Assembly (NCBI GenBank): GCA_009777715.1
Contig: WRLH01000017.1
Location: 2,191-66,190, forward strand
Origin: Lachnospiraceae bacterium
GTDB lineage: Bacteria; Bacillota; Clostridia; Lachnospirales; Lachnospiraceae
Reading direction: 5' to 3'
Length of the DNA: 64,000 nucleotides
Part shown: positions 9,775-57,692 of the stretch, piece by piece
Layout: each line of letters starts with the position of its first letter
Numbering within the stretch: the first letter of the stretch is position 1
Notes under the pieces: model-generated
The model's database searches: none
Told to the model about the DNA's origin: nothing
Seen by the model: only the letters and a program-made list of their open reading frames with translations
Translations under genes and position numbers: made by a program

Positions 9775-9799
9775 GTCATTGCGGACTTGTTCCGCAATC
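9775..9799 (-). repeat. REP-like hairpin (GTCATTGCGG-ACTTGTT-CCGCAATC)
   Basis: Member of the GATTGCGG-loop-CCGCAATGAC family, in inverted orientation. Confidence 0.85.
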
Positions 9800-9839
9800 C
9801 CAAAATCAAATCCGCAAAACGCAAAGCCGTAACTGTAAG

Positions 9840-10077
9840 GTACATGAGCAAAAAATTATCCGCGTCCTACCCTTTGAGACAAGAAATCATAAAATGCTCA
9901 ATTGAGTATGCAACAGAGTATATCATTCCAATAAGAATGCTAACATACCAGAGGTGTGTTAGCATTCTTGCCAGCGTTGCTGCCGAGCAACGCTTTTTTT
10001 ATGACCGAAAATTGGGCATTTTGCTTTTGATTTCGCAGTCACATGGTCAGGACGTGGGAATTTATTTGCTCATGTAC
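9840..10077. mobile_element. MITE-like nested palindrome, copy E1 (arms GTACATGAGCAAA...; variable central hairpins)
   Basis: The left arm GTACATGAGCAAAAAATT...CCCTTTGAGACAAGAAATCATAAAATGCTCAATTGAG and the right arm TTATGACCGAAAATTGGGCATTTT...TTTATTTGCTCATGTAC are imperfect inverted repeats. They are homologous to 55801-56041 and 57266-57476. Confidence 0.7.
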
Positions 10078-10098
10078 CCTGCTAACGAAATCTAGCGG

Positions 10099-10156
10099 GA
10101 TTGCGGAACAAATCCGCAATGACAGGCAAAGATTGCGGCGTGGGGGCCGCAATGAC
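10099..10156 (+). repeat. Two tandem REP-like hairpins (10099-10123, 10131-10156) 4 nt past the tyrS stop
   Basis: GATTGCGGAACAAATCCGCAATGAC and GATTGCGGCGTGGGGGCCGCAATGAC. Confidence 0.9.
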
Positions 10157-10159
10157 CCC

Positions 10160-11380
10160 TCACACCACAAACCTCCGGAAATGCTTCTTCCCCCTCTTTA
10201 CTAGCAAGCCCTCACCGCCAAAGCTGGCTTTAGTAAAAGCTTGCTTAAAATCCGTAACCTTTTCATTGTCAATTGAAACCCCGCCCTGCTCGACTGCCCG
10301 GCGGCCTTCGGAGCGGCTTAAAACCAGCTCGCCTTTGGTAAGAAGCGAAACAATATCAATGGCTTCATTTTCAAAATCATCATCAACAAGAACAGTCGTT
10401 GGAATTTCAGTACCGCCGCCCCCGGCAAACAAAGAAAGCGCCCCGGCCTTTGCTTTATCCGCTTCTTCTTTGCCGTGAACCATCTTTGTCACTTCAAAAG
10501 CCAAGATTTCTTTGGCTTCATTTAATCTGCTTCCCTCCCACTTGCTCATTTCCCCGATTTCGGCAAGGGGCAGGAAAGTCATCATTTTAAGGCATTTGAT
10601 GACCTCACTGTCAGCCACATTGCGCCAGTATTGGTAAAATTCAAACGGTGAAGTTTTTTCGGCGTCAATCCATAATGCCCCTTTGACGGTTTTGCCCATT
10701 TTGCTCCCATCTGCGTTAAGTAAAAGGGTATTCGTCAAGGCATAGGCTTTTTTGCCCAGCTTCCGGCGGATTAAATCAGCCCCTGCCAGCAAATTGCTCC
10801 ATTGGTCATCGCCGCCCAGCTGCATATTGCAGCCATATTTTTGGAAAAGCACATAATAATCATAGCTTTGCATAATCATATAGTTAAACTCAAGAAAGCT
10901 TAGGCCTTTTTCCATTCGCTGTTTATAGCATTCCGCCGTCAGCATCCGGTTGACGGAAAAATGGGCTCCCACTTCGCGTAACATATCTACATATTTTAAT
11001 TCGCGCAGCCAGTCAGCATTATTAACGAAGATCGCTTTGCCTTCGCCAAAATCAAGAAAATTTTCCATTTGCCGTTTAAAGCGTTCACCGTTTTCATCAA
11101 TCATGCTAGTCTCAAGCATTGAGCGCATATCTGTTTTTCCGCTTGGGTCGCCGACCATTCCTGTGCCGCCGCCGATTAGGACAATCGGGCGATTACCGGC
11201 CAGCTGCAAGCGTTTCATCATGCAAAAAGCCATGAAATGGCCGATATGGAGCGAGTTGGCAGTCGGGTCAAAGCCCATATAAAAAGTGGCTTTCCCGTTA
11301 TTAATCAGCTCCTTTATTTCCTCTTCATCGTTAAGCTGGGCAATCAAGCCCCGCGCTTTTAATTCTTCAAATAACTGCAT
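10160..11380 (-). CDS. tyrS: Tyrosine--tRNA ligase
   Basis: 406 aa. Has the class I HIGH motif (SLHIGHF), a KMGKT (KMSKS) motif and a C-terminal S4-like domain. AGGAGG lies 5 nt before the ATG. Confidence 0.95.
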   Translation of the reverse strand: MQLFEELKARGLIAQLNDEEEIKELINNGKATFYMGFDPTANSLHIGHFMAFCMMKRLQLAGNRPIVLIGGGTGMVGDPSGKTDMRSMLETSMIDENGERFKRQMENFLDFGEGKAIFVNNADWLRELKYVDMLREVGAHFSVNRMLTAECYKQRMEKGLSFLEFNYMIMQSYDYYVLFQKYGCNMQLGGDDQWSNLLAGADLIRRKLGKKAYALTNTLLLNADGSKMGKTVKGALWIDAEKTSPFEFYQYWRNVADSEVIKCLKMMTFLPLAEIGEMSKWEGSRLNEAKEILAFEVTKMVHGKEEADKAKAGALSLFAGGGGTEIPTTVLVDDDFENEAIDIVSLLTKGELVLSRSEGRRAVEQGGVSIDNEKVTDFKQAFTKASFGGEGLLVKRGKKHFRRFVV

Positions 11381-11444
11381 TTTTTCCTCCTAAAATAGTT
11401 TATGACAGCATTGCCTCAATTAAGCTTACCCATAACATATATAT

Positions 11445-11520
11445 CAAAAAACTTTAATTTCCACACTAAACTCAAAAAACTTTAGTTTTTTATAGAAAGT
11501 GGAAATTTAATTTCCACACT
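11445..11520. repeat. Terminator-like palindromic module (AAAAAACTTTAGTTTTTT + AGTGGAAATTTAATTTCCACACT), copy A, with a partial extra half
   Basis: The same module is seen at 45006-45068 and 55942-55990. It abuts the stop codon of the VWA gene. Confidence 0.8.
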
Positions 11521-11521
11521 A

Positions 11522-12724
11522 TCACTTTCTTAACATCAGCTCGTCCATGGCTTTTTTTAGGCCCGCAACGGTTAATTTGTACATCGGTAAGAGATTTTTA
11601 ACCGCCGTTTCCGCCTCGCGCCAAGGGGCATGGCCGGGTGCCATCTTTGGGTTAAGCCAGACAATCTTTCGGTAATTTTGCTTCAAAAGCTTTAGCCACA
11701 TGAATCCGGACAGGCCGCCGTTTGGCCCGCGGTAATTGCCGCTTTCGGAATAAAGCTCCTCCGGTGCCATCGCCGCGTCACCAACAATAATGACCTTGTA
11801 ATCACTTTCGAGGTTGCGAAACAGCCATTCTGTTTCGATCCAATCGCCGTTTTCGCATTCAGGAGTTTTATAAAGATGGGAATAAATGCAATTATGGAAA
11901 TAATAACACTTTACATCTTTATAATGATTCGCTTTATGGACCGATTGGAAAAGTTCATTTAAAAGTGATGTATAAGGTATCATTGTACCGCCTGAATCCA
12001 TTAAAAGCAAGAGCTTGACGGCATTTTTCCGCGGTTTTTCCATGACAATTTGCAAAAAGCCGCCATTAGTGCAGGTTTTATCGATTGTGCCGTTAATATC
12101 AAGCTCTGTTCTCGGAATGTCAAGCCGCGTTGAAAACTGCCGTAACTTCCTTAATGCCAATTGAAACTGCCGATTGTCAATAATCCGGTCGTCCCGGAAA
12201 TCCTTGTATTTGCGTTCACCCAAAACGGCAAAAGCAGATTGATGGCCAGACATTCCGCCAATGCGGATTCCGCCAAGGTTTGCCCCGGTGTTGCCAAATG
12301 AGGTCTTACCCATTGTGCCAATCCAGTAATTTCCGCCATTATGCTCGCTATCCTGCTCTTTTTTTCGCTCGTTTAACTTCGCTTCTATTTCATCTTTTGA
12401 CAAAGCTGGTTCTTCTTCCCGGTTTAACATACTGCGCAAATCTTCATTGACCAAGTCGGTCAATTCCTCTTTGTTAAGCCAGCGGAGCATTTCTTTGGAA
12501 ATGATGTCATTAGAATTAATGCCCTTAAAGCATTCATCAAAAGCAAGGTCAAACTTGTCATAGTCTGTTTCATTTTTGACAAGGACGGCGCGGGCAACAT
12601 AATAAAAGGCGGCCAGGCTGTTCTTGGCCAAATCCTTATTAAGCGCGTCTTGCAAGGTGAGCCATTCATTAAGGCTTATCTTTAAACCTTTGGCTTTTAA
12701 GGCATAAAAAAAATCAATGAACAT
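11522..12724 (-). CDS. VWA domain-containing protein (CoxE-like partner of a MoxR-class ATPase)
   Basis: 400 aa. The N-terminus MFIDFFYALKAKGLKISLNEWLTLQDAL and the C-terminal LLLMDSGGTM / IIVGDA pattern (VWA MIDAS-like) fit this family. It overlaps the upstream ATPase gene by 11 nt. Confidence 0.7.
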   Translation of the reverse strand: MFIDFFYALKAKGLKISLNEWLTLQDALNKDLAKNSLAAFYYVARAVLVKNETDYDKFDLAFDECFKGINSNDIISKEMLRWLNKEELTDLVNEDLRSMLNREEEPALSKDEIEAKLNERKKEQDSEHNGGNYWIGTMGKTSFGNTGANLGGIRIGGMSGHQSAFAVLGERKYKDFRDDRIIDNRQFQLALRKLRQFSTRLDIPRTELDINGTIDKTCTNGGFLQIVMEKPRKNAVKLLLLMDSGGTMIPYTSLLNELFQSVHKANHYKDVKCYYFHNCIYSHLYKTPECENGDWIETEWLFRNLESDYKVIIVGDAAMAPEELYSESGNYRGPNGGLSGFMWLKLLKQNYRKIVWLNPKMAPGHAPWREAETAVKNLLPMYKLTVAGLKKAMDELMLRK

Positions 12725-14210: not shown

Positions 14211-15095
14211 CTATCTTTCCTCCAGCGTTTGCGTCTGCACTTGCGTCTGCACTTGCGTCTGCACTTGCGTCTGCACTTGCGTCTGCACTTGCTTTTTATC
14301 TTGCGCCAGCCCCTGCGTCTGCCCTTGCGCCAGCCCATGCGCTTGCTTTTTTGCTTTTGCCTGTTCAATAATTATGTCATCTTTAATATCATTTTGATAG
14401 ATAATGACCCGCCCCAGCTTCATTAACTCAAGCACGACAAGAAAGGTAACAATGATTTCCATTTTGCTTTGGCCTTGGGAAAGCAAGGCGGTAAAGCTAA
14501 AACGCTTGTGCTTTTCTAAATAAGCTTCAACAAACAGCATTTTTTGCTCAACGTTGATTTCGTCTTTTTCGACCTCGCTAAAAGTAGAACGGATGGGGTC
14601 AATTTTGTCAACTTGACGCTTTAGCATGGTTTTAAATATCTCATGAAGCTTTTGTAAATCCGCGTCCCCGAGCAAATCTTCATAATCAAACGGCTGGCGG
14701 TAATTCTTAACTTCATCGGGCAGTGACTGGGGTTTGAATAAATTGCGGCGGGCGTCAACTTGGCGGTCTTTTAACTCGGCGGACATATATTTGTACATTT
14801 TGTACTCAAGGAGCTTTTGGACTAGCTCGGCCCTGGGGTCTTCCTCTTCGCCATCTTCATTTTCGGCAGGGGGCAGGAGCATCCGGCATTTGATGTCAAG
14901 CAAGGTCGCGGCAATAACGAGAAATTCACTCATTAAATTCATGTCCTCGCTTTCAAGATGGCGGATATATTCCAAATATTGTTCGGTAATCAAAACGATG
15001 GGGATATCGTAGATATCGACTTTATTTTTTTCTATCAGGTGCAAAAGCAAGTCAAGAGGGCCTTCAAAAACCTGTAATTTCACTTGTAAGGGCAT
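14211..15095 (-). CDS. scpA: Segregation and condensation protein A (kleisin) with an unusual repetitive C-terminal tail
   Basis: 294 aa. The N-terminus LQVFEGPLDLLLHLIEKNKVDIYDIPI is typical of ScpA. The C-terminus carries (QVQT)n encoded by a 12-bp repeat. Confidence 0.9.
   Translation of the reverse strand: MPLQVKLQVFEGPLDLLLHLIEKNKVDIYDIPIVLITEQYLEYIRHLESEDMNLMSEFLVIAATLLDIKCRMLLPPAENEDGEEEDPRAELVQKLLEYKMYKYMSAELKDRQVDARRNLFKPQSLPDEVKNYRQPFDYEDLLGDADLQKLHEIFKTMLKRQVDKIDPIRSTFSEVEKDEINVEQKMLFVEAYLEKHKRFSFTALLSQGQSKMEIIVTFLVVLELMKLGRVIIYQNDIKDDIIIEQAKAKKQAHGLAQGQTQGLAQDKKQVQTQVQTQVQTQVQTQVQTQTLEER
14229..14292 (-). repeat. In-frame 12-bp tandem repeat x5 (TTGCGTCTGCAC) at the 3' end of scpA
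   Basis: I counted five perfect units at 14229-14288 plus a partial unit. It encodes QVQTQVQTQVQTQVQTQVQT. Confidence 0.9.
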
Positions 15096-19554: not shown

Positions 19555-20001
19555 GCGTGAGGATTCTTTGCACTTCAATGCAGACCCGCTTTCGCTCGAT
19601 GTAAAACGTTGCGTTACATAAGTTCGTCAAAAACACGAACTATGTAACGACGTTTTACAACGGTCTGCGTTTGAAGTCAAAAATCCTCTCGCGAATACAC
19701 TACGCCGCGAGGGCGAAAGTGCGGTTCATAAGGCCGGGCCTTGAGATATCGTCAAAACGATTCTCTCGGAGCGAAAGCGTCCCGGACGATGAAGCGACAG
19801 CTTTCGTCCACGCGGAAAGATTCGCATTTGCATTGAAGTACAAAGAATCCTTACGCGGAAAAAATCCGGACGATGAAGCGACAGCTTTCCTCCACGCGGA
19901 AAGATTCGCGTCTGCATTGAAGTGCAAAGAATCCTCACGCGGAAAAAATCCAGACGGTGAAGCGACAGCTTTCGCCTACGCGGAAAGATTCGCGCCTCCT
20001 T
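19555..20001. repeat. Mosaic repeat array downstream of alaS: 138-nt long hairpin (19555-19692), a collapsed H-module, then an 84-bp unit x2.6 (19782-20001)
   Basis: Hairpin arms are GCGTGAGGATTCTTTGCACTTCAATGCAGACC and GGTCTGCGTTTGAAGTCAAAAATCCTCTCGC, around TTGCGTTACATAAGTTCG...CGAACTATGTAACGA. Unit starts are at 19782, 19866 and 19950. Confidence 0.85.
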
Positions 20002-22691: not shown

Positions 22692-23404
22692 GCGTGAGGA
22701 TTCTTTGTCTCTGCGTTGTACGTTTACGGTTTCTCCGCGTGAGGATTCTTTGTCTCTGAGTTGTGCGTTTACGGTTTTCCGCGTGGGCGAAAGCTGTCGC
22801 TTCACCGTCCGGGACGCTTTCGCTCCGAGAGAATCATTGCGTTACATAAACTCACAAAATACGTGAGTTAAGTAACGATGATTCTCAAGGCCCGGCCTTA
22901 TGAACCGCACTTTCACCCTCACGGCTTAGCGCTATTCATATTTCAAGCCTCACGGCATAGGGTTGCGCTGTACGTTTGCCAATTCAACCTCACAGCGTGT
23001 GCTAGTCGTCTACCGTTTCAATCCTCACGGCATAGAGTTGCGCGAGAGGATTTTTGACTTCAAACGCAGACCGTTGTAAAACGTCGTTACTTAGTTCGTG
23101 CTTTTGACGAACTTATGTAACGCAACGTTTTACATCGAGCGAAAGCGCGTCTGCATTGAAGTGCAAAGAATCCTCCGTGTAGCATAAGCTTTCGCCCACG
23201 CGGATAGATCGCGCGTCTGCATTGAAGTGCAAAGAATCCTCCGCGTAGCATAAACTTTCGCCCACGCGGATAGATTGCGCGTCTGCATTGAAGTGCAAAG
23301 AATCCTCCGCGTAGCATAAGCTTTCGCCCAAGCGGTGAGATTGCGGGTACGCCCGCAATGACGTGTGGCCTGTGCGGATAGATTGCGGGTACGCCCGCAA
23401 TGAC
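22692..23404. repeat. Mosaic repeat array upstream of alaS: ~45-bp unit x2.3, H-module hairpin (22827-22886), four CCTCACGGC modules, 136-nt long hairpin (23042-23177), 66-bp unit x3 (23147-23344), two REP hairpins (23339-23362, 23381-23404)
   Basis: The modules are shared with 9511-9748 and 19555-20001. Unit starts are at 23147, 23213 and 23279. Confidence 0.85.
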
Positions 23405-28770: not shown

Positions 28771-28790
28771 AATCTCTCCTCCAAATTCCA

Positions 28791-28914
28791 GATTGCGGGT
28801 CAGGCCCGCAATGACAATACCTTGGCGTGATTGCGGGTCAGGCCTGCAATGACAATAAATTGCTTGCGTCACCAGGGCCTCCGAGCCGCGTCATTGCGGG
28901 CTTGACCCGCAATC
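28791..28914. repeat. Cluster of three REP-like hairpins (28791-28815 +, 28829-28853 +, 28890-28914 -)
   Basis: GATTGCGGGTCAGGCCCGCAATGAC, GATTGCGGGTCAGGCCTGCAATGAC and GTCATTGCGGGCTTGACCCGCAATC, plus a GGCCTCCGAGCCGC half-site. Confidence 0.9.
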
Positions 28915-28917
28915 TCC

Positions 28918-32120: not shown

Positions 32121-32130
32121 TTTTTGCTCC

Positions 32131-35584: not shown

Positions 35585-35608
35585 GGTTATTCTCCTATGA
35601 AGTTTATA

Positions 35609-37721: not shown

Positions 37722-37742
37722 AAAATCTCCTATGGGTTTATA

Positions 37743-37820
37743 GATTGCGGGTCAAGCCCGCAATGACGTAAAAGGGTCAAGCACGTAAAATAAGGTCATT
37801 GCGGCCTCCGAGCCGCAATC
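37743..37820. repeat. REP pair: REP(+) 37743-37767 and REP(-) 37795-37820, between P1 and P2
   Basis: Same arrangement and flanks (TCTCCTATG.GTTTATAGATTGCGGG) as the cluster at 35592-35721. Confidence 0.9.
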
Positions 37821-37827
37821 TTGAAAT

Positions 37828-40752: not shown

Positions 40753-42306
40753 TTATTTTTCTATTATTTTCCAGGACCCGGTTTTATTAGACCCAATTCT
40801 TAATAGAATGCCATCCTGCTTCAATGCTTTTGTCTCACGCTCAATTGTTCTTGAGGACAAACCTGTTGCTTCTGCCAGTTGCTTCTTTGACATACTGGGG
40901 TTTTTCTCCAGCAGACCGATAATTAACTTGTGCCGATTTATACCGCCATTTATACCGCCATTTATACCGCCATTTATACCGCCATTTATACCGCCATTTA
41001 TACCGCCATTTATACCGCCATTTATATCATCATCTATTTCCTTACTGACATTAAACGCCTCATGTGCATAAATCGTTGCTATGAAATAATGACGGTCTTC
41101 ATCTGTTTCAAACTCCGGAGTCGGTGAACCGTTAATTTTTAAAGCTCGCAAAATCTTTGTAACGCCTGTTGATTTCTTTTCTGATAAATCTATTTCCTTA
41201 AAAAATTCACCTATGCGCCGATTGCGGTAACGTCTTGAAACAGCAAGTCCATTACTAAACTTTACCATATCAATGTGCTTCTCCGGGCCGGGATGATTGA
41301 TGACCATGATACGATTTAAGTAAATGCGAATTTCGACCGGCTCGTAAATACTATAGGATTTATGAAAAACTGCATTTACCAAAACTTCTTCCAATGCGTC
41401 ATATGGATAATTGAAAAATCGGTCTGCTTCAGCACGGTCACGATGCTTTACTACTTTTTCTTCGATTACGTTTGTCTTAATATACGAAAGAGCGTCGCGT
41501 ACCTGCTTATGTATCGGCCCTTTGAATATCTTTTCAACAAAATCATCAGATCCTTCGGCTTCTGGCGAGTTAAACCGTATCAGTTCAATTTGTGAGCATG
41601 GATGGAATTTTTCTGGCTTGTCCGAAAACATAAGTAAGCCAATGTTTCGGATATCGTATCCTGTATCGGTTACATTCGCTACTTCAAGGGCCGTAAGAAT
41701 GTCGCCTAGAGGCCTCTTGTCAATTTCACTGGCAAGTGAGCTGTTGCTCTCAACTAGATAATCCTCAAGATAAGCTCGGCGAATATCAGTGATTTTCGCT
41801 TCACGATTGACACGGTCATCTAATGGCACTGAAGTAAATTTCATAAAAAGTTCGTTAAGATCATCTCGTCTGGCAATAGTTTTTACTGATGACGGCTTAA
41901 TCCAAAACACTTTATTTGATTTGGTTTTTGCATAAATATCTTCGGGAGCTGAATATGGGCCGGCATCGCCACCTGAACACCAAAGATATAATAAGCATTT
42001 TTCCTGATAACGTATTATCTCAGATTTCGGAATATAGCGTGGTTCAATGAAATTGCAAAACCTAAATAACTCTTGCTGGATTTTATCTAATTCATTTTCA
42101 TCAACTCCGATGGGTGGTAAAATAGGGCGGCCATTCTTCTCTTCTATGCCAATGACGACATAACCGCCATTCGTATTCGAAAAATCATTAGCATATGCAC
42201 AAATGGTGGTAATAATCTCAGATGGATTCCAGCCACGTTTGTATTCCACGCGGTCATTTTCGACTATGCGGCCTTCTAATAGGGTTTCTAATTTTAGGGG
42301 AATCAT
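40753..42306 (-). CDS. AlbA_2 (Schlafen-like) / HATPase_c_4 / C-terminal winged-HTH protein (putative ATP-binding transcriptional regulator)
   Basis: The N-terminus LLEGRIVENDRVEYKRGWNP is the AlbA_2 hallmark, and the central VLVNAVFHKSY...INHPG matches HATPase_c_4. The C-terminal LLEKNPSMSKKQLAEATGLSSRTIERETKAL is an HTH. ATG 42306 lies 4 nt after the P3 stop, with AAGGTG upstream. Confidence 0.75.
   Translation of the reverse strand: MIPLKLETLLEGRIVENDRVEYKRGWNPSEIITTICAYANDFSNTNGGYVVIGIEEKNGRPILPPIGVDENELDKIQQELFRFCNFIEPRYIPKSEIIRYQEKCLLYLWCSGGDAGPYSAPEDIYAKTKSNKVFWIKPSSVKTIARRDDLNELFMKFTSVPLDDRVNREAKITDIRRAYLEDYLVESNSSLASEIDKRPLGDILTALEVANVTDTGYDIRNIGLLMFSDKPEKFHPCSQIELIRFNSPEAEGSDDFVEKIFKGPIHKQVRDALSYIKTNVIEEKVVKHRDRAEADRFFNYPYDALEEVLVNAVFHKSYSIYEPVEIRIYLNRIMVINHPGPEKHIDMVKFSNGLAVSRRYRNRRIGEFFKEIDLSEKKSTGVTKILRALKINGSPTPEFETDEDRHYFIATIYAHEAFNVSKEIDDDINGGINGGINGGINGGINGGINGGINGGINRHKLIIGLLEKNPSMSKKQLAEATGLSSRTIERETKALKQDGILLRIGSNKTGSWKIIEK
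40931..41026 (-). repeat. In-frame 12-bp tandem repeat x7 (+1 degenerate) CCGCCATTTATA encoding (GGIN)7
   Basis: Seven perfect units at 40943-41026, preceded by TGCCGATTTATA. It sits in the linker before the C-terminal HTH. Confidence 0.92.
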
Positions 42307-42310
42307 ATTG

Positions 42311-44794
42311 TCACCTTTGGTCAATCTCCTGCAAATACCGCGCCGCCACATACGCGGTCGGTATACCACTAGTATAATTAATCGCCGCCCAGCCATTGCT
42401 TAATCCGGTCACCCTGACGATGTCCCCGGCGCGTAAAGTGCCGACTATCCGCCCATTCATGCCCGGCGCGTTCCGGACAAACAGGCGCGAGGCCGGGCTT
42501 ATATTAACAGCATATGCCGTCACCCGCTCTTGGCTTGCTTCTGTTTCTAAAGGCCGGACCGGCCCGCTAAGATGGTTAAGGTAATTAACTGACAGCCACG
42601 TTCCGGTATGGGCAAGCACCCACTCGCCATCAGGGCTAAACTCAATTATCTCAACAACCGTCCCTCTTGCCAATCTGCCGACTAGTGGGAAACCAGTCCC
42701 CGGTCCGCTTCTTTCATTTAAATAAGTAGCATTCACAGTATAGAAAGATTTCGCGGGGGCAGGCTCTGGCTTTTCTGTCACACTCGCTGGCGGTACGCTT
42801 TGGGGCGGCGTATTCGACCGATACCGCACCGCTCCGCCGACTAAAACACCGCTTCCCCTAACGCCATCTACCCGGCTGTCAATCGTGCCATGGTTAAGAA
42901 TCGTCCCGCTGTTATTAAGCGTCCCGTTATTCGTAAGGATAATGCTTTGTGGAATCGTAAGGCTATTGCCGCTTGGCACAGACAAAGACTGGTGGCGTTG
43001 AAGAACCAAATTGCGCCTTAATGTGACATCGCCGTAAACCCTGCCGCTTGGGAAATCTTTTCCCCCGGTGAATAATATGCCCTGTGAATTATGGGTGGGA
43101 TTAAGGGGGACTTGATTAAAACCATCAGATGTAGATACGCCTGTCGCGTAAACGACACTATTGTTTGCGATTGTAAAGCTGTCGGCCAGAATGGCGGTCG
43201 GGATATAATGACCTGTGTATTCTAATGACGTTCCGGAGATTTGCCCCACCGTGCCGGAAATATATATATTTTCGCCCGCTTGCAGGCATATGCCAAGGCC
43301 AACATCGATATTGCCGACTGATCCGTCAATTTCAATTGATATAGAGCCATAAGGCGCATAGATAGCATTTGCGAAAGAATCAAAGTCGGAAGCTTTAATA
43401 TTACCCACCGAGCCAGAAATGATGATATCAGAGATAATGGAGATAATGGCTGGGTTGCCAATAATATTGCCGACCGTCCCATTTATATCAACCGTCCCAA
43501 CTCCTGAAATGGCTGAATTGACAGCATTTATTCCGCCAATCCGGCCAGATATTGAAATAATGTCAAATTCTCGGTTAGAATTTTGTTGTATTCCAACGCT
43601 CGCGGAAACATAATCTATATTTCCGTTTATTATTATACCCACATTTGCATAAATGCCAACTGTCCCTTTAATTAACGAGATATTGCCATCTTGGCCAATA
43701 ACAGCATTATCACACCGGATGGCAGTATGGGCTTCAATTTTATTTATCACCCCATCGATAATAACATTGCCATTTGCATGAATCCCATTGCCATAGGAAA
43801 TACCGAGCATAGAATCAACGACATCTCCGCCCCCTATAAAGCCAATCCGGGCAGTATCGGTAATCCTTGCGTTCCCCCCAGCCCGTATTCCTTCCCCGGC
43901 CGCCAACCCCTCTAAGGCCTCTATCCCGCCAATCGTGGCTGTGATGGTAATATTATCACCCAAGATGGCAACACTATTGCCAGATTGCCCTATGCTTCCG
44001 GCGTTAATGTTGCCGAATTCACCGGAAAGCGTCACATCGCCAGCGGCAAAAATGCCATGGCTGAATCCATTTATCCAAATCTCGCTGCCCTCGCCATGGA
44101 TTGTTGCACCATCTGGAACTACAAGAGCCATCCCGGCGCCCTCATTGCGCATAATCTTTGTATTATCCAAAATGGTGATGTCCAAGGACTCTTGAATAAC
44201 GACCGAGCCCATCCAATAACCACCTTTGAGGACAACAGACGAAGTGCCAAAGACGGTGATAGTATTATTAGCATAATCAACATTATAATCACTATGACCA
44301 GGAACTAGATTGTCAAAGTCAATGACAAGCGGGCATTCGCAAGGGTCTTGGCCGCAGTCAAGGCAAATTACTATGTTTACTATACATACGCAAGGGTCTT
44401 CCCCGCAGTCGGGGCATAATGCGAATAATGAGATGTCCCCGCTAAGCTCTGTAATTTTTGTGATTTCGAAGTCGGTGTTGCCGGATTGGTTGGGGTCTTC
44501 GTCTTCGATGGAATTGTTTTCCAAGGAAGTGGAATCTTCTTTGGGATTATTTTCGATGGAAAGGTTTTCCATGTTGTCAATGGAAAGGTTGTTGATGGAA
44601 AGATTTTCTTTGGAAAGATTTTCCATATTGTCTAAACTCATAAGTTCTGTTGCCGCCAAAGGGAACGGCTTTAGAATCAAGGCAAAGACCAGCAGTAAGG
44701 CGATTGCTTTGGCAAATGCCTTGGCATGGGCGGGTTTGGTTAATAAGCTTTCGCGAGTATGGAGTGCTGATTTCGTGAATATATTTCGTTTCAT
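42311..44794 (-). CDS. Secreted protein: NLS-rich repeats, twin C.DCG.DPC.C motifs, beta-helix repeats, two C-terminal SH3b domains (paralogue P3)
   Basis: ATG 44794 (MKRNIFTKSAL...) lies 7 nt after AAAGGA. The track start at 44890 is unlikely. The C-terminal ~150 aa are nearly identical to P1 and P2. Confidence 0.7.
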   Translation of the reverse strand: MKRNIFTKSALHTRESLLTKPAHAKAFAKAIALLLVFALILKPFPLAATELMSLDNMENLSKENLSINNLSIDNMENLSIENNPKEDSTSLENNSIEDEDPNQSGNTDFEITKITELSGDISLFALCPDCGEDPCVCIVNIVICLDCGQDPCECPLVIDFDNLVPGHSDYNVDYANNTITVFGTSSVVLKGGYWMGSVVIQESLDITILDNTKIMRNEGAGMALVVPDGATIHGEGSEIWINGFSHGIFAAGDVTLSGEFGNINAGSIGQSGNSVAILGDNITITATIGGIEALEGLAAGEGIRAGGNARITDTARIGFIGGGDVVDSMLGISYGNGIHANGNVIIDGVINKIEAHTAIRCDNAVIGQDGNISLIKGTVGIYANVGIIINGNIDYVSASVGIQQNSNREFDIISISGRIGGINAVNSAISGVGTVDINGTVGNIIGNPAIISIISDIIISGSVGNIKASDFDSFANAIYAPYGSISIEIDGSVGNIDVGLGICLQAGENIYISGTVGQISGTSLEYTGHYIPTAILADSFTIANNSVVYATGVSTSDGFNQVPLNPTHNSQGILFTGGKDFPSGRVYGDVTLRRNLVLQRHQSLSVPSGNSLTIPQSIILTNNGTLNNSGTILNHGTIDSRVDGVRGSGVLVGGAVRYRSNTPPQSVPPASVTEKPEPAPAKSFYTVNATYLNERSGPGTGFPLVGRLARGTVVEIIEFSPDGEWVLAHTGTWLSVNYLNHLSGPVRPLETEASQERVTAYAVNISPASRLFVRNAPGMNGRIVGTLRAGDIVRVTGLSNGWAAINYTSGIPTAYVAARYLQEIDQR

Positions 44795-44916
44795 GGGTGA
44801 TTCCTTTCTATATATCATATCCATAATTGGCGAGCCATCGTAAAGGTTAATTCTCATTGTTAGTTTAATATAATTTTGGCGGAAATGCAATAGCTTTTTT
44901 GTTGACTGGTGTGGTC

Positions 44917-45005: not shown

Positions 45006-45068
45006 CCAAAAAACTAAAGTTTTTAACACTTTAGTTTTTTAGAAAGTGGAAATTTTAATCTTCACACT
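45006..45068. repeat. Terminator-like palindromic module, copy B (AAAAAACTAAAGTTTTT...AGTGGAAATTTTAATCTTCACACT)
   Basis: Homologous to 11445-11520 and 55942-55990. Its end supplies the last codons and the TGA of the Rpn gene. Confidence 0.8.
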
Positions 45069-46048
45069 AGCACTTCCTGATATGCAAGGATTTTTTCAAC
45101 GCTTTCCTTAGTAATCTTCGCTATTTTTGCTATTTCCTCAACCGGATAGCCAGCTTCATACATATTCAAGATAATTTCGGCTTTGCCTTTTACTACGCCC
45201 TTTTCTATGCCCTTTTCTATACCCTCTTCTATGCCTTCCATAAAAACCATTTCGCCTAATCCTGACATCTTCTTTACCTCCTGGCTTAGTGACTTGCTAT
45301 ATTTAACGTGGTTTTCCAATACTTTATATGATTTCTTCGTCCGCGGATAAAACAAGGCGTTCATAATCCGGATTATTTCTTCGGTATTGTCATCGTCCGG
45401 ATCACCCAGCCTGATTATGACCATCGTCATTAAATCATTGTCACCCGGTTGAGTCTCTATGTCCTTGCTGTTCCAAGTGTTAACTAGCTCATATTGGGAA
45501 ATTGTGTTGCGTAAATCTTTCGGCACATTTTCCCGGCAGATAAAGATATTATAGACTTTCGCCAAAACGGTGTAGTCAGTCTTTGCTGTCGGGGCCGCTA
45601 TTTGTGAGCCAATCATCCTTGACATATAGTATATGCCGCGCTTTTCGATCGGATATCCCGGCCTATAGTTTCCCTGTGCCTCTACATCAACGTAAATATA
45701 ACAAGCAACTTCCTCATTAGAAAGTTTCGGGTTAATGACCTTAAAATATACATCGAACCGCGACATCATTTCATTTAGTGCTTTAAATTCAGGATTCAGC
45801 CCCTCAATCCGGTTTTGGTTAGTCCTGCCCGGCGCAACTTCTGTCACATTGCTGATTTTATCAGCTTCTATGCAATCGGCAATTTCCTGATATGACATAT
45901 CCTTAAATTCTTTGGCGGTATGCTTAAGCAATATGGCAAGGAACTCTTTATTCGATAAAATCTCTTTGCTCGTGTCATCTAACTGCGGAGCTTTGTCGGT
46001 TATCTGTAGTGAACTTGCTGCTGCTTCGCTCATTTCAATTTTGCCCAA
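45062..46048 (-). CDS. Rpn-family recombination-promoting nuclease / putative transposase (PD-(D/E)XK)
   Basis: 328 aa. Core ..FDVYFKV...YIYVDVEAQGNY.., and a C-terminal EGIEEGIEKGIEKG...ILNMYEAGYPVEEIAKIAKITKESVEKIL tail typical of this family. Confidence 0.65.
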   Translation of the reverse strand: MGKIEMSEAAASSLQITDKAPQLDDTSKEILSNKEFLAILLKHTAKEFKDMSYQEIADCIEADKISNVTEVAPGRTNQNRIEGLNPEFKALNEMMSRFDVYFKVINPKLSNEEVACYIYVDVEAQGNYRPGYPIEKRGIYYMSRMIGSQIAAPTAKTDYTVLAKVYNIFICRENVPKDLRNTISQYELVNTWNSKDIETQPGDNDLMTMVIIRLGDPDDDNTEEIIRIMNALFYPRTKKSYKVLENHVKYSKSLSQEVKKMSGLGEMVFMEGIEEGIEKGIEKGVVKGKAEIILNMYEAGYPVEEIAKIAKITKESVEKILAYQEVLV

Positions 46049-49122: not shown

Positions 49123-49204
49123 GATTGCGGCGCAGGGCCGCAATGACACAATGTTTACACAAGTACATTTCAAGGGAAATATGCGGCTTGGGGGCCGCAA
49201 TGAC
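49123..49204 (+). repeat. Two REP-like hairpins (49123-49147; degenerate 49179-49204) within a ~57-bp tandem duplication
   Basis: GTTTATACAAGTACTTTCAAGGGGGATTGCGGCGCAGGGCCGCAATGACACAA is followed by GTTTACACAAGTACATTTCAAGGGAAATATGCGGCTTGGGGGCCGCAATGACACAA. Confidence 0.85.
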
Positions 49205-50014: not shown

Positions 50015-51355
50015 CTAGGGATTGCGGCGCGGGGGCAGCAATGACAACGGCTGCAGATCGCTATCCCCAGCCTCATCCCTCATATACTTCTTGTATTTGT
50101 CCCGGTCCGCCACATGGCATCTGACGGTCATGGCAGCCCCCTCTTCAAAATACTGAAGCTTTTTTATTTCGGCATTTTCTATAAAATATGACGTAACAGC
50201 ACCATCTTGATAGGGAATAAGCACGTCCATTTCCTGATAATCGGCAAAAACTATGTCAATAATCATTTCGGTCAGCTCCTCAATGCCAATCTGCTTGCTG
50301 GCGGAAATATAAATCCGGTTTTCGTCCATTTTGAACGGTATATCTTCCATGCACTTATCCGCTTTATTATAGACATAAATCATCGGGATATGGGCAGCCC
50401 CCAGCTCCGTAAGGGTCGCCAGCGTGTCTTTAATATGGGCTTGGTGCTGGTCGTCCGCAAAATCAATGACATGGAGTAAAAGGTCGGCTTCTTTTACTTC
50501 TTCAAGTGTTGAATGGAAAGCCTTAATCAAGCTATGGGGCAAATTGTGAATAAAGCCAACCGTATCAGAAAGCAGGAAAACCGGGCTACTGCCATTATCA
50601 ATCCGCCTGACCGTCGTGTCAAGGGTTGCAAAAAGCATATCTTTTTCCAAAACTTTTTTCTCGTCATCTTCCATATACGTATCAACCATTGCGTTAAGGA
50701 GCGTTGATTTCCCGGCGTTGGTATAGCCAACCAGCGAGACGAGCGGAAGCCGTGATTCCATGCGCTTTTTCCGCTTCACCAAACGCCCGGCCGCCACTTC
50801 CTTTAGCTCCCGGCGCAGTTCGTCAAGGCGGTGGTTAATTTTCCGCTTGTCAAGCTCTAACTTCTTTTCACCCAATCCCCGGCTTGACTTGCTTCCGCTT
50901 GTTCCGGCCTGTCTGGTTAGGGCTTCGTGCATTCCGACAAGGCGCGGCAGCAGGTACTGGAGTTTGGCGGCTTCAACCTGCAATTTTGCCTCGCTGCTTT
51001 CCGCCCTTTTTTCAAAGATATCCAAAATAAGCGCGGTCCTGTCCATCACCGGGCATTCAATTTCTTTTTGCAGATTGCGTAATTGGGTCGGGGATAAAGA
51101 ATCATAAAAAACGATGATGTCCGCATTAAGAGCCTTGGCCGCTTCCCGGATTTCTTCGGCTTTTCCTGTTCCCACATATAATGAGCGGTGCTTTTCGGGC
51201 ATATTTTGGGTCAAAACGCCCACCACTTCCATCTGGCTTGCTTCGGCAAGTTTTTCCAGTTCTTCCATGCAAGCATCGAAATCAGGCTCAGCCCCTGTAT
51301 TTACGCCCACTAAAATGGCGCGTTCTTCGCGTTCGTAAGTTTCAATTTTTTCCAT
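50015..51355 (-). CDS. hflX: GTPase HflX
   Basis: The HflX N-domain is followed by G1 GYTNAGKST, DTVGF and NKAD. I chose ATG 51355 as the start. The track start at 51376 is a TTG and remains possible. Confidence 0.9.
   Translation of the reverse strand: MEKIETYEREERAILVGVNTGAEPDFDACMEELEKLAEASQMEVVGVLTQNMPEKHRSLYVGTGKAEEIREAAKALNADIIVFYDSLSPTQLRNLQKEIECPVMDRTALILDIFEKRAESSEAKLQVEAAKLQYLLPRLVGMHEALTRQAGTSGSKSSRGLGEKKLELDKRKINHRLDELRRELKEVAAGRLVKRKKRMESRLPLVSLVGYTNAGKSTLLNAMVDTYMEDDEKKVLEKDMLFATLDTTVRRIDNGSSPVFLLSDTVGFIHNLPHSLIKAFHSTLEEVKEADLLLHVIDFADDQHQAHIKDTLATLTELGAAHIPMIYVYNKADKCMEDIPFKMDENRIYISASKQIGIEELTEMIIDIVFADYQEMDVLIPYQDGAVTSYFIENAEIKKLQYFEEGAAMTVRCHVADRDKYKKYMRDEAGDSDLQPLSLLPPRRNP
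50020..50045 (+). repeat. REP-like hairpin lying inside the last codons of hflX
   Basis: GATTGCGGCGCGGGGGCAGCAATGAC. On the coding strand it reads ..CTG TCA TTG CTG CCC CCG CGC CGC AAT CCC TAG. Confidence 0.85.
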
Positions 51356-54003: not shown

Positions 54004-54900
54004 TCAGCGTCTTGGATGGGCCTTGGCATACATATCACGCATCCGGTTATGTTGCATATTGGCGTAAATCTGCGTTGTTGAGATATCAGAATGGCCAAGC
54101 ATTTCCTGCACAATCTGTAAATCCGCCCCATTTTCGATTAAATGCGCGGCAAAAGAATGCCTTAGCGTATGGGGAGTGATATCCGCGCTGATTCCGGCTT
54201 TTTTGGCATAAAATTTGATCAGCTTCCAAAATCCTTGCCTGCTCATGGGCTGGCCTTGGCAATTAACAAATAAAATTTCGTTTTCGGGATTTTCAATCAT
54301 CTGCTCTCTGCCGCCGCTTAAGTATTTGAGAATCGCTGTCCTTGCCGCGCTGCCAAAAGGGATAATCCGCTCTTTTCCGGTGCTTTTGCTTCCGTAAGAG
54401 CAAATAATATAACCCATCTGTAAATTTAGGTCTGTCATTTTAAGTGAAACCAGCTCCGTCACCCTGATACCTGTCGCATAAAGCAGTTCCAGCATTGCTT
54501 TATCGCGAAGCTCTTTAGGCGTCGCCCCGGCCGGCTGCTCTAATAAACGGATTACCTCTGATGTCGATAAAACATCGGGAGCTTTCCTTTCAATCCGGGG
54601 GGCTTTTAAAACATCTGAAACGTCAACCGCAATCATTCCCTCTTTCATCATATAATAATAAAAAGCTTTGATGGAAGATATGTTCCGGGAAATTGTGGCG
54701 GCGGAAAACTTATTTTTTTCAAGGAATAAAATATATGAATTAAGATTGGTCACGGTAATATCGGAAACATTGGCAATTCCTTGCTGTCTCATATAAAGAT
54801 TCACTTTATTAAGGTCACGGCGATAAGACATTGCTGTATTATCAGAAGTTTTCTTAGTATTATGTAAATAAGAAATGAATGAGTTGATTACTTGTTCCAT
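54004..54900 (-). CDS. xerD: Site-specific tyrosine recombinase XerD/XerC
   Basis: Contains the R...HxxR...Y catalytic set (ATGIRVTEL; HTLRHSFAAHL; LGHSDISTTQIYA). ATG 54900 (MEQVINSFISYL) is preferred over the longer track ORF. Confidence 0.85.
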   Translation of the reverse strand: MEQVINSFISYLHNTKKTSDNTAMSYRRDLNKVNLYMRQQGIANVSDITVTNLNSYILFLEKNKFSAATISRNISSIKAFYYYMMKEGMIAVDVSDVLKAPRIERKAPDVLSTSEVIRLLEQPAGATPKELRDKAMLELLYATGIRVTELVSLKMTDLNLQMGYIICSYGSKSTGKERIIPFGSAARTAILKYLSGGREQMIENPENEILFVNCQGQPMSRQGFWKLIKFYAKKAGISADITPHTLRHSFAAHLIENGADLQIVQEMLGHSDISTTQIYANMQHNRMRDMYAKAHPRR

Positions 54901-55064
54901 ATCTTTAAAAATCTCCCTGGTTTCCGGCTGGTAAGTTTTATTATAATCGCAATCGGCAAGAAATGCAAACACTAATTTCCTTTATTTTAAGCTATTTTCA
55001 GTCATTTTTTTCCAGATACAATATCTCGTAATTTTTATAAAAAATTACACAAGATATAGGCTGG

Positions 55065-55742: not shown

Positions 55743-55768
55743 GTCATTGCGGCCTCCGAGCTGCAATC
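55743..55768 (-). repeat. REP-like hairpin (GTCATTGCGGCCTCCGAGCTGCAATC)
   Basis: Family member with one stem mismatch. Confidence 0.85.
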
Positions 55769-55800
55769 TGGGCCCGACCCGCTTTCATTATTTTAGTACA

Positions 55801-56041
55801 GTACATGAGTAAATAAATTTCTACGCCTGCCCGGGAGACTTCGAAATCAAAGGACTAAAATGCCCAATTTTCGGCCATAATTTGCTCCTCAATTGAGCAT
55901 TTTACACCTCTTGCATTTCACAAGCGTAGCTTGTGAAACTGCAAAAAACTAAAGTTTTTTATAAAAAGTGGAAATTTTAATTTCCACACTATGATTTTCT
56001 TGTCTCAAAGGGCAGGGCATAGAAATTTTTTGCTCATGTAC
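55801..56041. mobile_element. MITE-like nested palindrome, copy E2, interrupted by an ~85-bp insertion (55905-55989) that carries the AGTGGAAAT module
   Basis: The arms match 57266-57476. In E3 the right arm reads GCATTTTATGATTTC without interruption. In E2 the same site reads GCATTTTA[CACCTC...CCACAC]TATGATTTT. Confidence 0.75.
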
Positions 56042-56135
56042 TTTACAATCTAGCCAAGCCTAGCGGGTCAGGCGATTACTAAACACTTTACCTTGCGATA
56101 GAGAGTGCGATAAAATGTTTAAATCGCACTCTCTG

Positions 56136-56254: not shown

Positions 56255-56935
56255 TTAGGCACGATGTTCCTCGCATAATAACGCAAATATATGCTTCACA
56301 TCCTCAGTTGAGTTAAGTCCGAGAGTTATGAAATGGCATTGTTTATAGTCTACGCCCTCAAATGTGTATATCATAGTGTAAGGACATTTATTGCATTGAC
56401 AGCTTTTGCAATCATTGCACCTGAAATTCGCCTTTATGTATTCCGGCATATCGTTGATAACATGCATATAATTTGAGCAGTTCTGCAAAGCGAGCCTTAC
56501 AACGATGTTGTCGTTTTCAATATCCATTCTGATGATAAAATCATCCTTATCTGGATTGTTGAATATTGAGCTGCAGCTGTTAAAAACTGCGTCAAATACA
56601 TTGTATTCGTTTTTGTAGCTTATCGTGAAGCTAAACCTATCTTTCATCTTTTGGTAAAGCAGCAACGCAAACTCACTGCTCTTACCGTCTACGGCATCCG
56701 CGAAGTCCTGAAAAGCTGTGTCTTGTGCGGCGAATGGCAAAAGCATCGAGTCTATCGAGCAATTCAATATCTGTGCCAACAACGGGAGCAGAGCCGTTTC
56801 AGGCAAAGTATGTCCATTTTCCCATTTGCTTATTGCCTGTGCGGTTATTCCGACTTTTTCAGCCAATTCCTCTTGTGTGAGTTTGCTTTGCTTACGCAAA
56901 GCGGCAATTTTATTGCCTACTGCCACGTTATCCAT
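56255..56935 (-). CDS. XRE-family HTH regulator fused to a Cys-rich C-terminal domain
   Basis: ATG 56935 lies 9 nt after GGAGG. The HTH is IAALRKQSKLTQEELAEKVGITAQAISKWENG. The C-terminus FRCNDCKSCQCNKCPYTMIYTFEGVDYKQCHF suggests a metal-binding module of unknown family. Confidence 0.7.
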   Translation of the reverse strand: MDNVAVGNKIAALRKQSKLTQEELAEKVGITAQAISKWENGHTLPETALLPLLAQILNCSIDSMLLPFAAQDTAFQDFADAVDGKSSEFALLLYQKMKDRFSFTISYKNEYNVFDAVFNSCSSIFNNPDKDDFIIRMDIENDNIVVRLALQNCSNYMHVINDMPEYIKANFRCNDCKSCQCNKCPYTMIYTFEGVDYKQCHFITLGLNSTEDVKHIFALLCEEHRA

Positions 56936-57031
56936 ACATAAAACCTCCAACTATAATAATTTTATAATAAATTAATTATAGCTCCTATAAACTCATTTTT
57001 CCATGTAATACAGGTTGTTTTTTCGGAAACA

Positions 57032-57052
57032 AACTTAACTTGAAGTTAAGTT
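57032..57052. promoter_or_regulatory. Perfect 21-bp palindrome AACTTAACTT-G-AAGTTAAGTT upstream of the XRE gene (candidate operator)
   Basis: Read directly from the sequence. It lies about 97-117 nt upstream of the XRE start, inside the inverted-repeat-bounded cassette. Confidence 0.4.
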
Positions 57053-57082
57053 CTGAAAATATAAATTTTATACGTACATCCT

Positions 57083-57109
57083 TATATCCCTATCAGCAAC
57101 CATATTAGT
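57083..57109. repeat. Right 27-bp inverted repeat of the XRE cassette
   Basis: TATATCCCTATCAGCAACCATATTAGT. Confidence 0.85.
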
Positions 57110-57124
57110 TTTGGTCTGCGTTAT

Positions 57125-57149
57125 GTCATTGCGGACTTGCTCCGCAATC
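57125..57149 (-). repeat. REP-like hairpin (GTCATTGCGGACTTGCTCCGCAATC), left end of the composite palindrome
   Basis: Family member. Its partner in opposite orientation is at 57667-57692. Confidence 0.9.
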
Positions 57150-57265
57150 TCACTATTCTGTTTACGTGTCACACGCACTCACCCGCACTCCGCGCGTGAT
57201 TTGCACTCCGCGCGTTTGAGAGCTGCCGATTCATCGCCCGACCCGCAATCTCATTATTTTGTAAA

Positions 57266-57476
57266 GTACATGAGCAAATAAATTTCTACGCCTGCCCGGG
57301 AGACTTCGAAATCAAAGACTAAAATGCCCAATTCTCGGTCATAAAAATAAATCGCGGCAAATTCCTATTTTATATACAGGAATCTTGCTCGCGATTTTTT
57401 TTATTTGGTCCTCAATTGAGCATTTTATGATTTCTTGTCTCAAAGGGCAGGGCGTAGAAAATTTTTGCTCATGTAC
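57266..57476. mobile_element. MITE-like nested palindrome, copy E3 (uninterrupted)
   Basis: GTACATGAGCAAATAAATTTCTACGCCTGCCCGGGAGACTTCGAAATCAAAGACTAAAATGCCCAATTCTCGG...central AAATCGCGG..CGCGATTTTTTTT hairpin...CCTCAATTGAGCATTTTATGATTTCTTGTCTCAAAGGGCAGGGCGTAGAAAATTTTTGCTCATGTAC. Confidence 0.75.
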
Positions 57477-57666
57477 TTTACAATCTAGTCAAGCCTAGCG
57501 GGTCAGGCGATTACTAAACACTTTACCGTGCGATAGAGAGTGCGATTCATAAGACCGACCCTTGAGAAAACGTCAAAACGATTCTCTCGGAGCGAAAGCG
57601 GGTCGGGCGGTGAATCGGCAGCTCTCAAACGCGCGGAGTATGAATCACGCGAAAACACCATAATGG

Positions 57667-57692
57667 GATTGCGGCTCGGAGGCCGCAATGAC
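57667..57692 (+). repeat. REP-like hairpin (GATTGCGGCTCGGAGGCCGCAATGAC), right end of the composite palindrome
   Basis: Family member, 9 nt downstream of the NUDIX stop codon. Confidence 0.9.

Follow-up and report, generated by a model that had tools for sequence, protein, structure and literature searches.

What are the short, oriented hairpins that recur throughout a 64-kb window of a Lachnospiraceae bacterium contig (WRLH01000017.1), and how did they come to lie behind its genes? The window is the whole stretch of DNA analysed here, and coordinates are positions within it unless another locus is named. The hairpins form one family, an invader of this Clostridia lineage whose copies occupy the short gaps that follow genes. 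They are probably CGTC-tagged repetitive extragenic palindromes (REPs), i.e. oriented and non-autonomous DNA palindromes that were spread in trans, amplified locally and transcribed as stem-loops of messenger RNA (mRNA).

Copies and enrichment

The hairpin family was real and strongly non-random. The exact core ATTGCGG-N4-12-CCGCAAT was found 14 times, against 0.02 matches expected and at most one per shuffle in 100 dinucleotide shuffles, while the arm-plus-tag sequence CCGCAATGAC (up to one mismatch) matched 34 times against 4.25 expected. A preliminary description of this DNA had listed 18 hairpins and two loop-less copies. When one mismatch per arm was allowed, the 18 hairpins were recovered with matching coordinates and strands, including the degenerate one at 49179-49204; this corresponds to about one hairpin per 3.6 kb. 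Both loop-less copies also lay where stated. Fourteen of them displayed a perfect stem, three a stem with one mismatch and one a degenerate stem. A search by structure only, accepting any AT...ATGAC hairpin with an 8-bp stem, gave 17 hits in the window, all from the ATTGCGG(G/C/A) stem family. Additional half-sites with one mismatch, such as 496-514, lay within coding sequence and look like chance matches. Written as a single-stranded oligonucleotide, the hairpin is CGTCATTGCGGGCTTGACCCGCAATCC. Its copies were the following:

9775-9799, minus strand: stem ATTGCGGA, loop ACAAG; stands alone in an intergenic region of 876 bp, with tyrS on one side and the gene of a 1304-amino-acid surface protein on the other
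10099-10123, plus strand: stem ATTGCGGA, loop ACAAA; starts a tandem pair in the same orientation
10131-10156, plus strand: stem ATTGCGGC, loop GTGGGG; ends 3 nt past the stop codon of tyrS
23339-23362, plus strand: stem ATTGCGGG, loop TACG; adjoins a 66-nt x3 tandem array (23145-23345)
23381-23404, plus strand: identical to 23339-23362, with which it forms a 42-nt tandem pair; 30 nt downstream of the stop codon of a class II aminoacyl-tRNA synthetase gene
28791-28815, plus strand: stem ATTGCGGG, loop TCAGG; 22 nt upstream of the start of a DUF4349 gene
28829-28853, plus strand: loop TCAGG, one stem mismatch (CCTGCAAT); 38-nt tandem duplicate of 28791-28815, and inward-tag doublet with 28890-28914
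28890-28914, minus strand: loop TCAAG; begins 3 nt past the stop codon of an M16 peptidase gene
35609-35633, plus strand: stem ATTGCGGG, loop TCAAG; partner in an inverted inward-tag doublet, 24 nt upstream of the start of a ROK kinase gene
35644-35659 and 35670-35685, plus strand: two loop-less GTCATTCCGCAATGAC units in a 26-nt x3 tandem array (35624-35701), within the doublet spacer
35696-35721, minus strand: stem ATTGCGGC, loop TCGGAG; encodes the last eight codons and TGA (EIAARRPQ*) of the SH3-domain gene 35697-37721
37743-37767, plus strand: stem ATTGCGGG, loop TCAAG; doublet partner, paralogous to 35609-35633
37795-37820, minus strand: stem ATTGCGGC, loop TCGGAG; 7 nt past the stop codon of gene 37828-40158, and the sole copy followed by a weak T-rich tract
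49123-49147, plus strand: stem ATTGCGGC, loop GCAGG; 14 nt upstream of ligA
49179-49204, plus strand: degenerate copy with left arm ATATGCGGC and loop TTGGGG; 57-nt tandem duplicate of 49123-49147 plus flank
50020-50045, plus strand: one mismatch (GCAGCAAT); encodes the last nine HflX codons (SLLPPRRNP), with the TAG stop codon 3 nt beyond (50015-50017)
55743-55768, minus strand: one mismatch, loop TCGGAG; heads a segment of ~370-420 bp duplicated on both sides of an Xre-type helix-turn-helix (HTH) gene
57125-57149, minus strand: stem ATTGCGGA, loop GCAAG; heads the second copy of the segment duplicated around the Xre-type gene
57667-57692, plus strand: stem ATTGCGGC, loop TCGGAG; 8 nt past the stop codon of a NUDIX gene

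Hairpin anatomy and class assignment

In all copies the stem was ATTGCGG(G/C/A) paired with (C/G/T)CCGCAAT, so the conserved stem announced in the preliminary description stood, as did its loop classes. The flanks were asymmetric, as also claimed there: G preceded the stem in 17 of the 18 copies and GAC followed it in all 18. The next base was G in seven copies, A in eight and C in three, giving on the other strand the tags CGTC, TGTC and GGTC, respectively; among the 190 copies of this stem family listed from other genomes (see below) it was G in 92 and A in 86. On the other strand, the unit thus reads YGTC, AT plus six bp, a loop, six bp plus AT, and C(T/C)N. Loops were four (two copies), five (nine copies) or six nt long (seven copies), TCGGAG loops becoming four nt long if a G·T pair is allowed. 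The tail started with C (17/18), continued with T or C and ended in C or A; among the copies listed from other genomes it was CCA, CCC or CTA. Three doublets with inward tags (28829/28890, 35609/35696 and 37743/37795) and four tandem pairs were found, alongside single copies. No close doublet with outward tags occurred among the 18 window copies. The oriented extragenic palindromes, single or in inverted doublets and tandem pairs, bear out the REP-like organisation proposed earlier, also likened to bacterial interspersed mosaic elements (BIMEs).

CGTC-tagged REPs were defined in the survey of Di Nocera, De Gregorio & Rocco (2013, BMC Genomics 14:522; PMC3733652). They display a terminal CGTC (often TGTC, also CCTC), an 8-9-bp stem starting almost invariably with A·T, T·A, a 4-5-nt loop of few types and a 3-nt tail near CCA (PMC3733652). 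Doublets are named HH when tags are outside, which is the predominant arrangement, and TT when tags are inside, which is rare, tandem HT pairs being negligible (PMC3733652). The elements are intergenic, between unidirectional or convergent open reading frames (ORFs) and near the 3' end of the one upstream, and some copies are intragenic; no transposase gene tied to the class was found in this defining survey (PMC3733652). The window hairpins were assigned to this superfamily because of their YGTC tag, AT stem base, 8-bp stem and CTTGA/TCAAG loop. By dimensions they were nearest to CGTC-2 (8-bp stem, 5-nt loop) and by loop sequence to CGTC-3; the intragenic CGTC-3 peptides VIAGLDPAIH and DARVKPAHD (PMC3733652) back-translate to the same CTTGA/TCAAG loop. 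Shared traits included the unpaired tag (CGTC or TGTC), the 8-bp stem starting A·T, T·A, CTTGA/TCAAG as commonest loop and a short C-rich tail at the opposite end. Several stem and loop subtypes per genome, doublets of unlike partners, intergenic positions near the 3' end of the preceding ORF, occasional in-frame intragenic copies, and the lack of an adjacent transposase were also held in common.

Neisseria dRS3, a CGTC-1 element forming NIME arrays, and the Rickettsia elements RPE-4 and RPE-6 (CGTC-1/CGTC-4 members, PMC3733652) resemble the window family as hairpins of the same superfamily within mosaic intergenic repeats, and the Rickettsia elements further by in-frame insertion into ORFs. 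They differ in stems and loops, and no use by a prophage or insertion sequence (IS) was seen for the window copies. Later work on CGTC repeats, or a paper containing the window hairpin sequence, was not found in the literature.

Position relative to genes and transcripts

The window was 86.8 % coding and 13.2 % non-coding, and almost all of its genes lay on the minus strand. As the preliminary description had it, copies lay at gene 3' ends or between genes: 16 of the 18 midpoints fell in the non-coding fraction (binomial P ~1e-12), and the two others filled the last 25-31 nt of ORFs, in frame. At eight of 11 sites a copy began less than 50 nt past the stop codon of the upstream gene. Since nearly all genes are co-directional, every copy would be transcribed; 12 copies were tag-first in the mRNA and six were reversed. 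Predicted folding energies were about -12.6 kcal/mol for single copies and -36 to -69 kcal/mol for doublets and clusters (z-scores of -2.4 to -7.5 overall and -4.7 to -7.5 for doublets and clusters), doublets being able to form one long hairpin.

These hairpins were not canonical terminators, given the absence of a T tract. A terminator scan of 28000-38500 flagged only the copy at 37795-37820, with its weak T tract, and the flanks of other copies were not T-rich; an intrinsic (Rho-independent) terminator reading was rejected, 17 of 18 copies having no T tract. No Rfam family was hit at gathering score over the whole window, and an E-value scan of 28700-29000 gave nothing beyond spurious matches to hairpins, Yfr1 and mir-335 among them. 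The copies, with no credible Rfam hit, were not parts of one gene or of a known non-coding RNA. A clustered regularly interspaced short palindromic repeat (CRISPR) array was ruled out, the copies being scattered over 48 kb in both orientations. As tag and loop were conserved in both orientations relative to transcription, constraint acts more plausibly on DNA than on RNA. An RNA effect may then be a by-product of this DNA-level constraint, possibly still relevant between cistrons: to judge from the predicted folds, the mRNA stem-loop would most likely be a barrier to 3'-exonucleases or a processing point.

Hairpins in other genomes

A scan of one genome per species (596 Gb) with the pattern GATTGCGG-N4-10-CCGCAATGAC gave at least 120 loci, the resulting list of phyla being a non-random lower bound. 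The 120 listed loci (~0.8 Mb) harbored 212 perfect-stem hairpins, 190 of which belonged to the ATTGCGG stem family (up to one mismatch per arm). By our own estimate, 18 fixed bases would be matched ~120 times by chance in 596 Gb. Among the matches listed, the loop TCAAG occurred in 103 of the 212 copies and a single identical 24-mer made up 62 of the 190. Most hits were thus not due to chance, since loops were identical even though the pattern did not specify them. As labelled, the hosts of the 24-mer represented at least eight phyla: Burkholderiales (including Comamonadaceae), Bacteroidota, Bacillota, Actinomycetota, Elusimicrobiota, Chloroflexota, Nitrospirota and Campylobacterota. Many of the listed hits were metagenome-assembled genomes (MAGs) from gut communities. 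The G+C content of the listed loci ranged from 0.34 to 0.69, in line with host labels, so the spread is not explicable by one contaminating organism.

The preliminary description regarded such hairpins as unexpected in Bacillota. This held for the 2013 survey, which covered Proteobacteria, Chlorobi, Bacteroidetes, Spirochaetes and Thermotogae and did not mention Firmicutes (PMC3733652); it did not hold for the matches listed here, where further MAGs of Bacillota carried the same hairpin (Clostridia, Oscillospiraceae, Defluviitaleaceae and Family XIII).

Sister hairpins with other stems and with the same tag, AT base and TCAAG loop also occurred at the listed loci (ATCCCGGA, ATGCCGGA, ATCCTGAG and ATGCTGAA). 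A set of 38 distinct sequences was gathered with the anchor AT-N6-TC[AG]AG-N6-ATGAC only, pairing not being required. In this set 97.4 % of cells were paired, against 75.4 % in shuffles, and the covariation score was 0.617 against 0.19. Compensatory changes were present in all six free pairs, and sliding the partners by one column reduced pairing to 32-41 %. This covariation indicates that the hairpin shape is maintained with the stem sequence free, tag and loop being constrained in sequence.

Doublets with outward tags were common at listed loci from other phyla. At three of these (L002, 4222-4414; L100, 4302-4975; L010, 6254-7196) the ATTGCGG hairpin alternated with a hairpin of different stem in such doublets, which in L002, a Zetaproteobacteria MAG, were repeated at an exact 84-nt period. 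Doublet partners in other phyla were typically of unlike stems and cannot therefore pair with each other. Outside chromosomes, a blastn search of the plasmid database PLSDB with the 30-mer gave no match, and viral contigs displayed only 29 matching stretches, mostly with single copies; the repeat is not phage-centred.

Lineage-specific gain

Window genes were ordinary chromosomal housekeeping genes of a spore former (SpoIVA, SpoIIM, XerD, TyrRS, AlaRS, LigA, HflX, AroA, Era, RecO and ScpA/B). Three other assemblies of the same DNA (L121, L166 and L167; two contigs from ENA ERZ27257348 and one from JGI 3300002469) were 99.8-100 % identical and differed from the window only in the lengths of tandem repeats. 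The nearest relatives reached 69-72 % identity in an RluF-like protein and came from metagenomes Ga0082212 and Ga0131853, one being a Lachnospiraceae MAG; none closer than 72 % identity was found in the protein database. Judging by MAG names of the type Nt197 and Lab288, both metagenomes would be termite-gut samples.

The syntenic relative was a Lachnospiraceae MAG (ENA ERZ27257297, contig k141_2581634). Its syntenic 20 kb (spoIIM, xerD, DAHP synthase, aroA, hflX, rluF, ligA, HTS and ROK) harbored no copy even at relaxed stringency, and the matching part of the window harbored five. This absence points to a lineage-specific expansion. HflX of the window displayed a C-terminal extension of 16-17 residues, closed by hairpin codons and lacking in the relative, where hflX overlaps rluF. 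Two ORFs would have incorporated a copy that now provides their C-terminus and stop region, one encoding an SH3-domain protein and the other HflX.

Local amplification

Tandem arrays of 26, 38, 42 and 57 nt included REP copies plus flanks. The loop-less GTCATTCCGCAATGAC units belonged to the 26-nt array and were absent from the paralogous doublet 37743-37820, and GCAATC or GCGATC, a remnant of the REP 3' end, opened each unit of the 66-nt array 23145-23345 as read on the sense strand. Such arrays, loop-less units and remnants suggest slippage or duplication after insertion. Copies would then have multiplied locally, through replication slippage or tandem duplication, and may also have travelled within gene duplications: of three paralogous SH3-domain genes, two were followed by the same inverted doublet and the third by no hairpin. 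These SH3_3 genes (35697-37721, 37828-40158 and 42311-44890) were 86-88 % identical at their 3' ends, one displaying a Listeria-Bacteroides repeat, and two of the three were duplicated along with the downstream REP doublet and the ribosome-binding region of the next gene. No consistent direct repeat marking a target-site duplication was found at the boundaries of single copies. Direct repeats were limited to an 8-nt one, ATGAGGCT, placed 20-25 nt outside the HflX copy, and one of 13 nt around 57667.

Search for a mobilising enzyme

RAYTs (REP-associated tyrosine transposases) belong to the Y1 HUH type of IS200/IS605, and the preliminary description had noted no RAYT-like gene in the window. 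Indeed, no Y1/HUH domain was detected in any substantial window ORF. The only transposase-like gene of the window, 45062-46048, encodes a protein with a PD-(D/E)XK (PDDEXK_2) domain and a resolvase-type HTH_7; it was not flanked by REPs, lay between HTS and the SH3-domain genes and was absent at the same position in the nearest relative.

An all-against-all BLAST of 3239 ORFs from the 120 listed loci and the window uncovered no recurrent neighbour family beside the hairpins. Twenty REP-flanked ORFs of the listed loci, compared with Pfam, were housekeeping genes or had no Pfam match, examples being SAICAR synthetase, NusA, histidinol dehydrogenase, AIR carboxylase, Sua5, Era, an amino-acid kinase and phosphatases. 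No transposase was found among these 20 by Pfam, and nuclease-like similarity was limited to weak, sub-threshold Card1/NERD matches at one locus (L066). With E. coli RayT as query, tblastn and phmmer searches of the window and listed loci gave one real homologue, at L091 (3128-3760), from Candidatus Symbiothrix dinenymphae. This gene was flanked and interrupted by GTAG-type REPs, and the CGTC copy of the locus lay ~850 nt off, beside another gene. The region 2750-3760 of L091 comprised this RAYT-like Y1 gene with HUH motif HWHAIV, flanking GTAG REPs of the form GTAGAGACGTGGC(A/G)TGCCACGTCTC and one REP of the same type in frame inside the gene, an arrangement matching the 'subclass 2.4' described in PMC6006769.

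In the survey of CGTC repeats, none of the Y1 genes in CGTC-bearing genomes was flanked by CGTC repeats (PMC3733652), and the phylogenomic study of RAYTs detects REPs via a GT[AG]G guide (PMC6006769). Neither GTAG nor GTGG was present at either hairpin foot among the 18 window copies. The family therefore resembles RAYT-associated REPs, BIMEs and REPINs (doublets of REPs) of E. coli and Pseudomonas as short extragenic palindromes, unpaired over four nucleotides at one foot and occurring as singlets, inverted doublets and clusters, in high copy number and at gene 3' ends. It differs from them by its tag (YGTC instead of GT[AG]G) and by the lack of a RAYT beside any window or listed copy; the CGTC class, as published, has no dedicated transposase. 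The absence of an adjoining transposase here reproduces this published orphan status.

Weighing the explanations

The asymmetric features of the hairpins were conserved in both orientations of transcription, from which we infer recognition at the level of DNA. A trans-acting enzyme or host factor would read the tag, the loop and the hairpin shape, not the stem sequence. The same tag and loop, and often an identical 24-mer, on covarying stems in at least eight phyla form the pattern expected of one specific enzyme acting on single-stranded DNA. It is tentatively proposed that a single enzyme of this kind, specific for sequence and structure and either horizontally mobile or a universally conserved host protein that was hijacked, not a REP-flanked RAYT, lies behind the cross-phylum pattern. 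As a speculative lead, the CTTGA loop is similar to CTTG|A, a motif that is the nick or target site for Rep proteins of the pC194/phiX174 type and for IS91.

The preliminary description had attributed mobilisation to RAYTs, and classical REPs or REPINs moved by a RAYT encoded elsewhere in the genome are an alternative that we consider unlikely. The organisation is REP-like, the tag is unpaired and the three inverted doublets are foldable as REPIN-like hairpins (-36 to -69 kcal/mol); as one RAYT per genome works in trans, its absence from 64 kb is uninformative. The attribution was nevertheless not upheld: the tag is YGTC and not GT[AG]G, the guide used for the REPs of the RAYT study (PMC6006769), and the Y1 genes of the CGTC survey were not CGTC-flanked (PMC3733652). 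Besides, the sole RAYT in ~0.8 Mb of listed loci is tied to GTAG REPs, and the 20 REP-flanked ORFs were housekeeping genes or had no Pfam match. Home-grown regulatory RNA hairpins (terminators, attenuators or stabilisers), selected in place and not mobile, are a rather less probable origin. Copies right after stop codons between co-directional genes, stable predicted folds and covarying stems would all suit such a role. It would not account for identical 24-mers in several phyla at G+C contents from 34 % to 69 %, nor for tag and loop occurring in both orientations (12 against six), which makes the RNA sequences differ between copies. The missing T tract in 17 of 18 copies, the lack of an Rfam family and the hairpin-free orthologous intergenic regions of the nearest relative argue in the same direction.

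Repeats of this sort can also be used by other mobile elements: Neisseria dRS3 serves filamentous prophages as target and REPs serve elements of the IS110/IS1111 family. It is nonetheless highly improbable that service to another mobile element, as targets for its recombination or integration, is the main reason why the window hairpins are kept. Mosaic intergenic arrays are described for dRS3, i.e. CGTC-1 (PMC3733652), and window REPs do lie inside mosaic repeat regions, one REP heading each ~400-bp duplicate around the Xre-type gene. No integrase, IS110-type gene or prophage adjoined any window copy, XerD (54004-54972) being a housekeeping recombinase, and this explanation addresses the use of hairpins, not the origin of identical ones in many genomes.

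Several points weigh against the assignment to CGTC-tagged REPs spread in trans. Doublets of the window are inward (TT) and tandem pairs equally common, whereas HH is predominant and HT negligible in published families; seven of 18 loops are six nt long instead of four to five; and the tail is C(T/C)(C/A), CTC or CCC, instead of CCA. The mobilising enzyme was not found in the 64-kb window and listed loci. Mobility itself is inferred, assemblies L121, L166 and L167 displaying no presence/absence differences in REPs, and the empty-site comparison uses a relative at only ~72 % protein identity. The role of the hairpins in mRNA, likewise, is one suggested by predicted folds. The departures in doublets, loops and tail are variation within the CGTC class and no grounds to exclude the family from it, doublet orientation being an organisational tendency of the class and not a definition.

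Neighbouring repeats and other features

A second, mosaic set of repeats occupied five long intergenic regions near tyrS, alaS and the class II aminoacyl-tRNA synthetase gene (9494-9757, 19567-19994, 22692-23345, 55772-56111 and 57236-57637). It consisted of arrays (55-nt x2.8, 84-nt x2.5, 45-nt x2.1 and 66-nt x3) and dispersed modules of 110-130 nt, with no Rfam hit at gathering score, and its units held a further hairpin, TTTGCA-TTGAAG-TGCAAA, between GATTC...GAATC. An A+T-rich palindrome, GTGGAAAT-N3-4-ATTTCCAC, was present in three copies (11487-11541, 45035-45089 and 55957-56011), followed by a T-rich run on the sense strand. Located just downstream of gene ends, the three resemble genuine intrinsic terminators and would form a small repeated family apart from the REPs.

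The Xre-type HTH gene (56255-56950, 231 residues) lay between direct duplicates 55743-56111 and 57125-57546, which were ~370-420 bp long, 92-97 % identical and each headed by a REP. Its position between nudF and spoIIM, with no counterpart by spoIIM of the relative, suggests an insertion or duplication event. In-frame tandem repeats with units of 12, 15, 21 and 18 nt were found in coding sequences (14229-14341, 5796-5926, 6432-6525, 40936-41026 and 32731-32818). For the ScpA gene, whose 3' end holds the 12-nt array, the window and L121 differed by 24 nt in this array, which is thus either length-polymorphic or collapsed in assembly. Finally, a DUF4160 (86 residues) and DUF2442 (93 residues) gene pair at 31839-32391, upstream of the M16 peptidase gene, displayed a pairing typical of toxin-antitoxin-like modules.

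Implications

The window family adds CGTC-tagged REPs in a phylum absent from the original survey, here in a spore-forming Clostridia bacterium; the class itself was already described. The host range of a mechanistically unexplained class of repeats is thereby extended to Bacillota. The persistence of so short a hairpin across distant genomes, with a covarying stem, argues for a specific recognition factor. For annotation, such repeats create spurious ORFs and also truly alter gene ends, as in the HflX tail and in the C-terminus and stop codon of the SH3-domain protein. The contrast between a REP-dense lineage and its REP-free syntenic relative is the most useful lead on the mechanism of spread and, if true, would make the two a natural pair for finding the enzyme by gene presence and absence.

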